A stretch of DNA of 64,000 nt, taken from positions 1-64,000 of the forward strand of contig CAXHJY010001347.1 in NCBI GenBank assembly GCA_964016885.1, read 5' to 3'. Position 1 is the first letter of the stretch; each line of letters starts with the position of its first letter. Shown piece after piece: positions 4,077-61,610 of the stretch. Origin of the DNA: Eledone cirrhosa. Its lineage: Eukaryota. The notes below the pieces were generated by a model. It was not told where the DNA came from, searched no databases, and was given only the letters and a program-made list of their open reading frames with translations. Position numbers and translations under genes: made by a program.

Positions 4077-4132
4077 TATCTGATGAGGACGTACTTAGGA
4101 AACAGTACAGAACCTCTGAAATATATATAATA
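4077..4132 (+). ncRNA. Type I hammerhead ribozyme (minimal, weak stem I)
   Basis: TAT-CTGATGA-GGAcGT...ACcTCT-GAAA-TATATA-TA-ATA; core intact, stem I only about 3 bp. Confidence 0.7.
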
Positions 4133-4340
4133 TAATATATTTGATCACATGAATGTCTATATTTATTAATATATGAATTAATATATATATATATATATAT
4201 ATATATATATATATATATATATATATATATATACACATGAATATATATATATATATTGTATATATATATTTATTTATATATATATATATATATATAGTAT
4301 ATGTATATATATATATTTATATATATATATATATATACAT

Positions 4341-4482
4341 AGGAAAAAGTATAATCTCGACGGCAGAGCTCAAGCCGTTTCGACGGTCATACTTTTTCCT
4401 GTTTTCCACGCTACTACCTTAAGTATTGAGTAGTATGGTGCGTTATGGTCCATCTGGTTCCTTACCACAATTCCTTTGTTTC
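4341..4482 (+). mobile_element. Short fold-back PLE-type insert, family B (half HHR plus tail)
   Basis: Arms AGGAAAAAGTAT/ATACTTTTTCCT enclose an inverted GAAA-CGGCT..CCG-TC; tail homologous to 21950-22029 and 48778-48860. Confidence 0.7.
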
Positions 4483-7400
4483 ATATATATATGTATATAT
4501 ATTGTATATATATATATATATTGTATATATATATATATATATATATATATATTATATATATATATATATTGTATATATATATATATGTATATATATATAT
4601 ATATATATATATATATTGTATATATAAATATATTTTATATATATATATTGTATATATAAATATATTTTATATATATATATGTATATATATATACAAATTC
4701 TCTATATATGTATATATATATATATATATATATATATTATATATATATATATATATTATATATATATATATTATCTATATATATATTATATATATATATA
4801 TTATCTATATATATATTATATATATATATTATGTATATATATATATTGTATATATATATATATATTATGTATATATATATATATTGTATATATATATATA
4901 TATTATGTATATATATATATATATTTACGTATATATATATATATTGTATATATATATTATGTATATTTATATATTGTATATATATATATATATTATGTAT
5001 ATATATATATATTGTATATATATATATATATTATGTATATATATATATATTGTATGTATATATATATATATTGTATATATATATATATATATATATATAT
5101 TGTATATATATATATATATTATGTATATATATATATATATTATGTATATATATATATATTGTATATATATATATATATATATATTATGTATGTATATATA
5201 TATATATTTGTATATATATATATATTGTGTATATATATATATATATTATATATATATATATATATTATGTATATATTGTATATATGTATTTATTGTTATA
5301 TATATATATATATTGTGTATATATATATATTATGTATATATATATATATATTATGTATATATATATATATTGTGTATATGTATATATTGTGTAAATATAT
5401 ATATATATATTATGTATATTATATATATATTGTGTATATATATATATATATTATGTATATATATATATATATTATGTATATATATATATATTGTGTATAT
5501 ATATATATATATTATGTATATATACATATATATTGTATATATATATATATATTGTGTATATATATATATATATATATTGTGTATATATATATATTGTGTA
5601 TATATATATATTCGTGTATATATATATATTATTGTACATATATATATATATATTCTATATATATATATATATATTGTATATATATATATATATATATTGT
5701 ATATATATATATATATATTGTATATATATTGTATATATATATATATATATTGTATATATATATATTGTATATATATATATATATATATTGTACATATATA
5801 TATTGTATATATAAATATATATATATATTGTACATATATATATTGTATATATAAATATATATAAATATAATGTATATATATATATATATATATTGTTATA
5901 TATATATATATTGTATATATATATATATTGTATATATATATATTGTATATATATATATATATATTGTATATAATATATATATTGTATATATATATATATT
6001 GTATATATATGTATATATATTGTATATATATATATATTGTATATACATATATATATTGTATATGTATATATATATATATGCGTATATGTATATATATGCG
6101 TATATATATATTGTATATATATATATATTGTTTATATATATATATATTGTATATATATATATATTGTTTAATATATATATTGTTTATATATATATAATAT
6201 ATATATTGTTTATATATATATATATATATATATATATATTGTTTATATATATATCTATCTATATATATATATATATATATAAATATATATATATATATAT
6301 ATATATATATATATATATATATATATATATATTATATATATATTATATATATATATATATATATATTATATATATATATATATATATATATATATATATA
6401 TTGTATATATATATATACAATATATATATATATATTGTATATATATATACAATATATATATATATACAATATATATATATATACAATATATATATAATAT
6501 ACAATATATATATATACAATATATATATATGTATATATATATATATATGTATATATATATATATTGTATATATATATATATATTGTATATATATATATAT
6601 ATTGTATATATATATATATATTGTATATATATATATATTGTATATATATATATATATACATATATATATATTGTATATATATATATATTGTATATATATA
6701 TAATATTGTATATATATATATATATTGTATATATATATACATATATATTGTATATATATAATTGTATATATATATATATTGTATATATATATATATTGTA
6801 TATATATTGTATATATATATATTGTATATATATTGTATATATATATATATTGTATATATATATATATTGTATATATATATTGTATATATATATATATTGT
6901 ATATATATATACATATACATACATATAAATTGTATATATATATATATTGTATATATACATATATATATATGTTGTATATATATATATTGTATATATATAT
7001 TGTTTATATATATATATTGTATATATATATATGTTATATATATATATTGTATATATATATATTGTATCTATATATATTGTATATATATATGTTGTATATA
7101 TATATATGTGTATTGTATATATATATATATATTGTGTATATATATGTTGTATATATATATATGTATTGTGTATATATATATATATTGTATATATATATAT
7201 ATATTGTATATATATATATATATTGTATATATATATATATATATATATTGTATATATATATATAATGTATATATATATGTATATTGTATATATATATATA
7301 TTACATATATATATATATAGTATATAATATATAGTGTATATATATATGAATTGTATATATATATTACATTATATATAGTATATATATATAGTGTATATAT

Positions 7401-58640: not shown

Positions 58641-61115
58641 TAGATAAATCTACCAAGAGTTTACGGTAGTGTCCAATCCGTATGAAGAACTCAATGTATT
58701 CCGGATATCATGGAAAGAAGAGATGTAATGAAAATCCAATTTCGGTGAAAGATAAACGGTATACAGAGTCAAGATAAAATATTAAACAAATAATGAACAA
58801 ACAATTCCTTATATTAAACAAAAAAAGTTCACTATTTAACGATCGTTTCTAGGGCATATATGTGCTATAATTGGTATGCATATTTAACAGATCTATGTAC
58901 AAAATTATACAAAATTATACAAATTATCAAGATTAAATATACATACCTAACTCATATATACGCCGTCTTCAGAAATAATGAAGTATATTTATTGATAAAA
59001 ACAACAATTCAAAATATCAGTTCAAAATTGACCAATGAAAACACAAAGGGTTAAAAAGCAGTTTGGTGTGTGTATATACATGTAAAACCCTACACACATT
59101 TTACAATAATGTGTGTATAATATGTATGTGCATACTAAAAAGATGGATGCAAATAAAAAATTTCAAGGTTAATATCTCTGTAAGCTTAATGCGCTGATAA
59201 GATACGCAATGATACTTATGTAGTCAAGCATATAAATATATTTTTTTCATACTCACACATATCAGTATAATCACACATACATGTGCGTATATATATAAAT
59301 ATACACATAACCACGAACACACAACCACACACACACCCCCCACTCACATTTATATATGTGGATATAAAATCATAAGCAAATAGAAATTAAGTCACTCACA
59401 TAAACACACTGGTACACACATTTCAAGATCAAGATACAGAAATTAGGTGGGAGGGGGGGGGGGGAGGGGTCAGTATTAGGTTGTCAGACCAGACAGCCTA
59501 ATATAAATGTATCTATAAATTATGAAAAATAAAAAAATAAAAACAATAAAATATATTACATAATATAATGTACATACGCATACAGATATACATACACATA
59601 CGTACATGTACGCGCACATAGAGATATCTACACATACATACATACACACATACCTATACTGTCATACACACACATACATTTACACGAACATACACATACA
59701 CATATAAAAAGATAAAAATACGGACACACACACGCGCAACACATACACACATACGCATATATATATATATATATATATATATATATATATATATACATAT
59801 ATATACACACACACACATAGACTCATATATATATACATACACATACATATACTTATACATAAACATATATATCCCACACTCATACCACCATGAAAACACA
59901 TACAAACATCCAGATATATATATATATATATATATATATATATATATATATATATAAACATACACACACGTACACATATATGCATATATACATACACATA
60001 TACACACATACACATATATATATATATACACACACACATAAAATACAGACATGCACATATATATATATATATATATATATATATACATTTCATTACCCTT
60101 ATATATACACATAGTATATATACATACTCAACCTCACTTATACACATATACACATAAGTTATATTACAATAATAATAAAGAATAATATATATATATATAT
60201 ATATATATACATATATATACACACATATACACATATACATACATACACATACATATACATACATACATACACATACATACATACACCTATTATTATTATT
60301 ATTTTTATTATTATTTTTATTTTTTTTTTTTTTTTTTTTTTTTTTTTTTTTTTTTTTTATTTTTCATAATTTATAGATACATTTATATTAGGCTGTCTGG
60401 TCTGACAACCTAATACTGACCCCTCCCCCCCCCCCCTCCCACCTAATTTCTGTATCTTGATCTTGAAATGTGTGTACCAGTGTGTTTATGTGAGTGACTT
60501 AATTTCTATTTGCTTATGATTTTATATCCACATATATAAATGTGAGTGGGGGGTGTGTGTGTGGTTGTGTGTTCGTGGTTATGTGTATATTTATATATAT
60601 ACGCACATGTATGTGTGATTATACTGATATGTGTGAGTATGAAAAAAATATATTTATATGCTTGACTACATAAGTATCATTGCGTATCTTATCAGCGCAT
60701 TAAGCTTACAGAGATATTAACCTTGAAATTTTTTATTTGCATCCATCTTTTTAGTATGCACATACATATTATACACACATTATTGTAAAATGTGTGTAGG
60801 GTTTTACATGTATATACACACACCAAACTGCTTTTTAACCCTTTGTGTTTTCATTGGTCAATTTTGAACTGATATTTTGAATTGTTGTTTTTATCAATAA
60901 ATATACTTCATTATTTCTGAAGACGGCGTATATATGAGTTAGGTATGTATATTTAATCTTGATAATTTGTATAATTTTGTATAATTTTGTACATAGATCT
61001 GTTAAATATGCATACCAATTATAGCACATATATGCCCTAGAAACGATCGTTAAATAGTGAACTTTTTTTGTTTAATATAAGGAATTGTTTGTTCATTATT
61101 TGTTTAATATTTTAT
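58641..61115 (-). mobile_element. Large fold-back HHR element (~765-bp arms)
   Basis: Near-identical inverted arms 58774-59537 / 60352-61115, ~810-bp spacer, unique tail 58641-58773. Confidence 0.88.
60907..61061 (+). ncRNA. Type I hammerhead ribozyme with extended stem II
   Basis: TTCATTATTT-CTGAAGA-CGGcGTATATATG..~90 nt..CATATATGCcCTA-GAAA-CGATCG-TT-AAATAGTGAA; mirror copy at 58828-58982(-). Confidence 0.82.
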
Positions 61116-61558
61116 ATTTATATATATATATATACAGTCAATGATATTGAACACATTAGTCAGTCTGGTAATCATTGTAAATATACATTTATGTATGCAT
61201 ATAGACTCTTTCTACAAATATGTCTATATATCTATATTTATATGTATATGTATGCGTGTATATATATATATTTTAGAATTTTCAAGTTTTGCTGGACCGG
61301 CACTCGCTCTGTATAATCACCAACAATGTGAAACAGATATGTCAGCTTATCTCCCTTTGTTTGTTGAAAAAAGAAGTAAGTGACATAGTCACTACTTTAA
61401 AATAATAGCGCAAGGTCTTCAAAATATTTTTAATTAAGCATACAGTATATCGCCAAATATACTATATATATATTCATATATATATATACATATGTCCCAA
61501 GGCTCTGATACCATCAACACCATAAACACAGAGCTGGCATATATAAGAACTGACTAAC

Positions 61559-61610
61559 TGCCTGATGAGGTCATACCCATTCAATAGCTATCATCGAAAT
61601 ATATATAGCA
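61559..61610 (+). ncRNA. Type I hammerhead ribozyme
   Basis: TGC-CTGATGA-GGTcATA...TATcATC-GAAA-TATATA-TA-GCA. Confidence 0.8.

Follow-up and report, generated by a model that had tools for sequence, protein, structure and literature searches.

A recurrent C·C mismatch in stem II of hammerhead motifs from Hydra-clade Penelope-like elements of Eledone cirrhosa

Hammerhead motifs in the 64-kb window

With respect to hammerhead motifs, positions 1 to 64,000 of contig CAXHJY010001347.1 from Eledone cirrhosa (assembly GCA_964016885.1; the whole 64-kb stretch is called the window below) contain eight minimal type-I hammerheads that reside in the terminal repeat (3′ untranslated region or pseudo-long terminal repeat) of Penelope-like elements (PLEs) of the Hydra clade and share a C·C mismatch at the fourth position of stem II. 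A preliminary description made from the sequence alone had listed these eight cores, and all eight pairs of stem II arms are indeed present at the coordinates given here, each flanked by CUGANGA and GAAA. The eight hammerheads, with their links to element open reading frames (ORFs) where such links exist, are the following.

4077..4132, + strand: family E, decayed copy; C·C 4090/4114; predicted cleavage after 4129
11100..11154, + strand: family D; C·C 11115/11134; predicted cleavage after 11149; ORF link L143, L161/L335
21308..21373, + strand: family B; C·C 21326/21350; predicted cleavage after 21365; ORF link L215/L334, L224
22267..22332, + strand: family A; C·C 22285/22309; predicted cleavage after 22324; ORF link L061, L063
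44754..44811, + strand: family C; C·C 44768/44792; predicted cleavage after 44807; ORF link L120
50567..50635, + strand: family F; C·C 50588/50609; predicted cleavage after 50624; flanks align with A/B/E
60907..61061, + strand: family J, 116-nt stem II; C·C 60927/61036; predicted cleavage after 61051; ORF link L311/L312
61559..61610, + strand: family D2, decayed copy; C·C 61572/61592; predicted cleavage after 61607; weak flank similarity to D

In every one of these the mismatch occupies stem II position 4 (10.4·11.4 in the standard hammerhead numbering). By a structural descriptor, stem III has 8 nt and the open stem I has 3-11 bp in each case, and the triplet is of the NUH type (AUA in seven cores, GUU in the core at 60924); the type-I core C3 U4 G5 A6 N7 G8 A9 / G12 A13 A14 together with A15.1-U16.1 and H17 is likewise present in 8/8. 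The first stem II pair is G·U, A-U, U·U (44765), C·A (60924) or G-C, with no bulge. For the two decayed copies (4087 and 61569), structure prediction gives no stem II.

That these motifs represent real hammerhead folds, as had been proposed, is borne out by an alignment of 12 representatives, one per family and picked as mismatch families, in which 90.6% of the cells pair as compared to 28-51% in slid controls, and in which two-sided changes occur at 11 of 15 pairs, a number reached by none of 500 shuffles. Position 4 is unpaired in all 12 of these rows, chosen as they were as mismatch families. The claim that the pairs flanking the C·C covary freely holds for pairs 2 and 3 only, since pairs 5-7 are constrained (R-Y in 12/12, Y-R in 12/12 and A-U in 10/12 representatives) and since a mismatch or wobble is frequent at pair 1.

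The pattern CTGANGANNNCN{14,40}CNNNGAAAY has 12 matches in the window as compared to a mean of 0.01 in shuffled sequence (at most 1 in 100 shuffles); the core at 60924 and its twin, with their 116-nt stem II, fall outside this pattern, so that the window total amounts to 14 C·C cores. Inverted twins on the minus strand accompany six of the eight listed copies.

10946..11072, − strand: inverted twin of the 11112 element; core 11005-11042
21047..21208, − strand: inverted twin of the 21323 element; core 21112-21154
22053..22184, − strand: inverted twin of the 22282 element; core 22105-22147
44490..44652, − strand: inverted twin of the 44765 element; core 44558-44600
50343..50503, − strand: inverted twin of the 50585 element; core 50411-50450
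58771..59240, − strand: inverted 470-bp copy of the 60924 element end, 99.8% identical; core from 58972

A ninth C·C copy, belonging to family F and lying at 52257-52546 on the minus strand, has a GAAA core short of one base. Six further cores in the window, at 24552(−), 32139(−), 54150(−), 54974, 55444 and 55890, carry no C·C, and the listed eight are thus a selection.

No Rfam model covers the C·C form: across the window there is no hammerhead match at gathering score, and at E ≤ 10 the 25 matches over 21050-22470, a segment with two C·C loci, include no hammerhead model. Scans at relaxed E-values of C·C loci and of loci with the tail hairpin described below returned hairpin and microsatellite noise only. 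In four sequencing runs of unrecorded kind over 60700-61655, variants adjoin the C·C bases and none lies at them, an observation that is given no weight because three of the four have very low cover.

The host elements

The window copies are short, dead, 5′-truncated insertions in (TA)n, most of them palindromic, and frames coding for reverse transcriptase (RT) and endonuclease are found between inverted or tandem hammerhead pairs. Next to the C·C hammerheads of families A, A2, B, C, D and J lie ORFs of the Hydra type. The ORF evidence is complete for families I and J and partial for A, A2, B, C and D, and comprises, as compared by eye with part of PMC8557442, R-W-R/K (RLRW/RVRW), DKT and KDHK motifs, a CxCx5CP linker and a C-terminal endonuclease. 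The frames thus show the arrangement of the Hydra clade, i.e., a single ORF with RT followed by a C-terminal endonuclease, RWK-like and DKT motifs, a CxCx5C linker and no CCHH motif. Apart from protein motifs, the clade is diagnosed by (TA)n targets and by truncated copies that lie in tandem or inverted order and carry a tail on one side (PMC8557442, in part), all of which are seen in the window elements; the one-sided tails are about 85-145 nt long here, however, as compared to 30-40 bp in the Hydra elements described there. A Pfam search matched no family for any of four proteins. Naiad PLEs, which have an N-terminal GIY-YIG endonuclease and no canonical hammerhead, were considered as an alternative identity, on the idea that published descriptors might have missed their hammerheads, and rejected because the endonuclease of families I and J is C-terminal.

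For family E (4087) the ORF link is tentative (L323), and none was obtained for families F (50585) and D2 (61569). By flank alignment E and F match A and B (z 4-11), and D2 matches D weakly (z 2-3). An endonuclease fragment (L079) that had at first been given to family D turned out to belong to another insertion. When five loci selected by their protein were extended, the link to a hammerhead was clear in L343, uncertain in L344 and decayed in L342, and L341 and L345 had none.

Full-length copies of family J (L311, L312) are about 6.2-6.4 kb long, far above the size of described Hydra elements (<3 kb), have an open frame of 830 codons and are near-identical, which indicates a very young family. 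In both, about 3.4 kb separate the stop codon from the hammerhead. At two family C loci (L313, L314), 2.8-kb tandem units without a Hydra protein match lie between two family C hammerheads and are possibly a non-autonomous derivative.

Abundance and variants of the mismatch

Pattern counts over the whole 3.0-Gb genome show a very strong enrichment of the C·C form, with 90,431 matches as compared to 9,830 when the pattern is reversed. By eye, a dozen families account for about 98 of the first 100 C·C matches listed. When the 5′ C is placed one position too far, the genome has 2,257 matches as compared to 1,008 in the control.

The preliminary description had called the C·C invariant, and this does not hold, as position 4 can also be C·U, U·C or G-C. 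A strict C·U pattern has 28,212 matches in the genome as compared to 202 in its control, most of them from family I, which is nested inside the mismatch clade and carries C·U; the two patterns are unequal in strictness, so that the ratio of C·C to C·U is approximate. U·C is found in the L190 family, which has no ORF link, and G-C at position 4 of L343. These replacements are mostly one step away from C·C. Where A·C or C·A occurs in isolated copies, it resembles a private mutation within another family, and a purine mismatch at position 4 characterises none of the families seen. Variation within families among 86 of 90 copies found by DNA similarity is too low to be informative. An 8-nt stem III as such does not force the mismatch, since it is combined with a normal pair in four metagenome loci and in some host families. 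Sequence comparison thus suggests that, depending on the background, C·C can give way to C·U, to U·C or to a Watson-Crick pair.

Phylogeny and conservation

In an IQ-TREE reconstruction from 20 proteins, a single clade (support 100/99) comprises C, J, L024, D, I, B, A and A2 and is separate from the normally paired host family and from all database sequences; the same clade is recovered at a Shimodaira-Hasegawa (SH) support of 93 in a FastTree reconstruction of 72 rows. The sequences from other sources in these trees are database homologues rather than the named reference Hydra proteins of Craig 2021. The window families represent about four deep lineages (C; J; D; A/B) with 40-49% protein identity, between which the 45/50-nt flanks align no better than shuffles (z ≤ 2) and across which the C·C is kept. 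The notion of a distinct structural subclass is not supported, as the carriers are related families of one clade and not independent inventions, and as other Hydra hammerheads pair normally at this position.

By parsimony on a tree of eight families, position 4 changed twice, as compared to 4, 7, 6, 4, 4 and 4 changes at positions 1, 2, 3, 5, 6 and 7, respectively. That an unpaired site changes less often than paired ones points to selection. The consensus around the mismatch is C-R-Y-A / U-R-Y-C. An approximately unbiased (AU) test does not reject a topology with the mismatch families as one clade without L024 (p = 0.064). The C·C would have arisen once, or once with a later reversal if the G-C of L024 is secondary and L024 is not simply a sister lineage to the mismatch families. 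As the window copies are dead, and as read-through of a palindromic insertion would presumably pair the hammerhead with its own antisense, purifying selection on the C·C would have acted on master elements and not on the dead copies.

Outside this genome, a metagenome search was run with an alignment of seven non-host homologues as query, and the best 80 of 239 confirmed stretches were taken. On the coding strand, 58 of these contain a hammerhead that passes the descriptor; position 4 is a standard pair in 57 and an A·C closing the terminal loop in the remaining one. The C·C is hence found in 0/58 metagenome Hydra hammerheads, with a query that favoured elements other than those of the host clade and recovered none of that clade's outside members, and this absence is therefore no proof that the C·C is confined to this host. 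In viral contigs, none of 36 pattern matches folds as a hammerhead, and a tblastn search of phages gave no match.

A conserved bulged hairpin in the element tail

Past the inverted repeat, the element tail holds a second conserved structure, RCUC-Y-[variable]-R-UH-GAGY, in which a 4-bp stem is followed by a 2-nt bulge and a Y-R pair. It lies 55-65 nt past the hammerhead cleavage site and has been located in the window as follows.

11210..11251, + strand: tail bulged hairpin, family D
21423..21444, + strand: tail bulged hairpin, family B
22381..22402, + strand: tail bulged hairpin, family A
44871..44932, + strand: tail bulged hairpin, family C
50689..50715, + strand: tail bulged hairpin, family F, one pair broken
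about 58690-58770, − strand: tail bulged hairpin

Where metagenome loci extend at least 120 nt downstream, 45 of 52 have the motif, as compared to 17 of 1,040 shuffles, and in metagenome loci it often occurs twice ahead of the start codon. Of the 66 rows listed after removal of near-duplicates, 39 have C-G and 23 have U-A as their inner pair, and the four exceptions are all secondary overlapping matches. The outer pair is A-U in the host mismatch families and G-C in database elements and in host family X. It is doubtful that the A-U form is always coupled to the mismatch, as it apparently also occurs in a host family (L057) whose position 4 is A-U. No Rfam model matched the hairpin at the five loci scanned. 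This Hydra-clade-wide hairpin is a candidate for a signal that RT might recognise or prime from.

Interpretation of the mismatch

Minimal PLE hammerheads have been described as cleaving weakly and as dimers, the canonical stem II consisting of 4 bp (PMC4209133, in part). By analogy with such known PLE hammerheads, a tandem transcript would contain two copies that pair via stem III and cleave as a dimer, whereby RNA of unit length would be released. In line with this, the stem III 8-mers are predicted to form self-duplexes of -2.2 to -10.0 kcal/mol in 7/8 cores (+0.4 kcal/mol in the decayed copy at 50585), and a hairpin is predicted in none of the eight. Since stem III is self-complementary and pairs with a second copy, a dimer interface needs no C·C, and the palindromic stem III explains dimer formation better than the mismatch, to which the preliminary description had tentatively assigned it.

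The mismatch itself sits at the end of the canonical 4-bp stem II, where loop 2 would begin. A pyrimidine·pyrimidine pair at this point could serve as a narrow, flexible hinge by which the elongated stem II would dock beside stem I, while weakening of stem II by about 4-7 kcal/mol might tune the folding or the cleavage rate, the pair not belonging to the catalytic core on this view; contacts between loop 2 and stem I of hammerheads have been described (PMC6155905, in part). The position at which the canonical stem II ends, the stability gained when position 4 is closed to C-G (4.0-6.7 kcal/mol predicted for the undecayed copies) and the fact that the substitutes are pyrimidine pairs or full pairs favour such a hinge, with which stem II in its elongated form would lie more readily against stem I, and the chances of this explanation being correct are judged to be about even. 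That the pyrimidine·pyrimidine pair might instead be a tertiary receptor which replaces the contact between loops 1 and 2, and possibly docks the downstream bulged hairpin, has a small probability.

Several observations weigh against a selected role of this kind. No conserved stem I partner nucleotide was found that would explain docking. The excess conservation of position 4 is modest (2 as compared to 4-7 changes, in only eight families), and as 7/8 ORF-linked families were found via a C·C or C·U hammerhead, the count is biased upward. L024, which was chosen by its protein, has G-C at position 4 of a hammerhead about 650 bp downstream, and L227 (66% identical and likely a relative) appears to have G-C in a decayed core. 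Intact frames of 714 aa are numerous in one Watson-Crick family of the same genome; Watson-Crick families are thus active there, and the mismatch is unnecessary for the spread of such elements. Finally, hammerhead cleavage was dispensable for insertion of an anole PLE in vitro (PMC11167929, in part).

This last result, obtained with the sole PLE so tested, would also suit an explanation by which the mismatch and the adjoining R-Y, Y-R and A-U pairs form a mark recognised by the RT-endonuclease of the element or by a host protein, the ribozyme chemistry being unaffected. The conserved motif C-R-Y-A / U-R-Y-C does reach past the mismatch, which is located near the element end at 55-65 nt from the second conserved hairpin, and the change at position 4 tracks a protein clade. 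The downstream hairpin, however, is the more obvious protein site, being found throughout the Hydra clade, and the same mismatch occurs with proteins only 40-49% identical whereas a nested family has switched to C·U; a recognition mark is therefore considered rather unlikely. The predicted destabilisation of 4-7 kcal/mol and the tolerance of C·U and U·C might also mean that the mismatch merely weakens stem II, in which case any non-pair would do, and that it eases refolding between monomer, dimer and RT template without a specific contact. Such weakening could, however, be placed anywhere in the stem, and yet position and pyrimidine identity are fixed while the predicted stability of stem II ranges from about -2 to -39 kcal/mol between families, and no purine mismatch has replaced the C·C in any family seen, all of which renders this explanation improbable.

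A functionless ancestral substitution inherited by all families would agree with the one origin on the tree, with the loss to G-C inside or beside the clade, and with the small number of independent lineages (about four) and their ascertainment; but neutral unpaired sites should outpace paired ones, whereas position 4 changes least, and loops and flanks are unalignable between lineages that share the mismatch, so that a frozen accident is hardly a probable explanation either. The least credible proposal is a separate structural subclass defined by an invariant C·C, e.g., a protonated C·C+ pH switch, a metal site or a dimer interface. It can draw on the exact C·C in 6/8 ORF-linked families and in about 90,000 matches, but cores with C·U, U·C or G-C are intact, dimer pairing is already explained by stem III, and core, topology and host element are all those of known PLE hammerheads, which makes it very improbable. 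On the comparative evidence, the mismatch is probably a selected feature of known PLE hammerheads that is abundant, lineage-specific and replaceable, and that might act as a hinge in stem II.

Other repeats in and near the window

In the segment 54103-56331, type-I hammerheads with short stems are found in each copy of a 470-bp tandem repeat (3.8 copies) and in a partial copy that is inverted; the cores at 54974, 55444 and 55890 belong to the tandem repeat and the core at 54150 to its inverted copy. This repeat is a non-LTR retrozyme array in (TA)n (LTR, long terminal repeat). At 24380-24640 (−) lies a small palindromic Hydra-type end of family K, in which position 4 is normally paired and stem III has 9 nt; the family K endonuclease (L329) falls outside the mismatch clade, together with host family X. 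At 32090-32478 (−), a Hydra-type endonuclease end is followed by a hammerhead with a stem II of three positions, a 5-nt loop and a palindromic 8-nt stem III. A decayed Hydra-type endonuclease fragment at 39170-39535 (−) abuts a satellite of 4.2 kb at 39510-43744, which consists of 139 copies of 31-bp units with 95% matches. At positions 5637, 6208 and 6764 of L061, tandem units of about 560 bp carry a Hydra-style hammerhead (10-nt stem III, 51-nt stem II); the array is apparently retrozyme-like and derived from a Hydra-type end.

A fragmented non-LTR retrotransposon occupies 26618-29955 (−), with RT pieces and, by eye, a C-terminal cysteine-rich/nuclease-like segment. A repeat of about 610 bp is present in three copies 89-93% identical (14535-15143, 34609-35220 and 49513-50116), and a repeat of 185-200 bp resembling short interspersed nuclear elements (SINE-like) has at least 11 copies in the window, 80-98% identical.

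SINE-like repeat copies: 17458-17645, 25487-25671, 30360-30562, 36223-36436, 37053-37888, 43742-43928
SINE-like repeat copies: 50145-50334, 51797-51992, 52734-52921, 62107-62293, 63618-63773

Significance and comparison with known hammerheads

It is an open question why PLE hammerheads, with their weak cleavage and apparent dispensability in vitro, should be conserved (PMC4209133 and PMC11167929, each in part). In the present genome, C·C, C·U, U·C and G-C alternate at a single position in tens of thousands of copies, and young full-length elements are present as well; this naturally occurring series makes peripheral requirements directly testable. Moreover, it contains more than 100,000 hammerhead-like motifs that are invisible to Rfam and are probably also missed by descriptors requiring an uninterrupted stem II. 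If the pair were indeed a tertiary receptor, the working unit would be a larger, undescribed module of ribozyme and priming signal, which would explain the poor in vitro cleavage of isolated PLE hammerheads and would link cleavage to the recruitment of RT.

With respect to published material, the C·C is found by eye in 0/26 Hydra rows of File S2 of PMC8557442, and in 0/56 alignment rows of Fig. S3 of PMC4209133 or in the main text of the latter. Nor does it occur in text passages of PMC3088659, PMC7229834, PMC10085705, PMC6155905 and a 2026 retrozyme preprint. A stem II C·C mismatch was thus not found in the hammerhead literature covered, outside which lie figures, the supplements of the preprint and the survey of short-stem-III hammerheads by Lunse, Weinberg and Breaker 2017 (PMC5785218), any of which could already show it; small PLE-associated hammerheads cleaving as dimers are reported from that survey in a summary (PMC6765202, in part).

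The hammerheads described here have in common with those of the Hydra elements in PMC8557442 (as far as covered) the protein motifs of the clade, (TA)n targeting, the terminal position, an intact CUGANGA/GAAA core, a short palindromic stem III and a first stem II position that is often U·U or a wobble. They differ in stem III, which is mostly 9-10 nt long in the published cases and 8 nt here, and in a stem II that is longer and interrupted. With the min-HHR (PMC4209133, in part) they share the type-I topology, a long helix II, a short helix I and a short palindromic helix III implying dimer cleavage, the location in PLE terminal repeats, many consensus families per genome and inverted pairs 100-700 bp apart. 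The bulged 9.1, the conserved G10.1-C11.1 and the continuous helix II of the min-HHR, in contrast, are lacking here, and the published Hydra rows (PMC8557442) also deviate from bulge 9.1 and G10.1-C11.1. With the hammerheads of non-LTR retrozymes (PMC7229834, in part) and of the Rfam models they have the core and the type-I topology in common, but in those hammerheads stem II is short, continuous and closed by a terminal loop 2, unlike in the C·C cores. The C·C mismatch is therefore a variant of known PLE hammerheads and not a new class.

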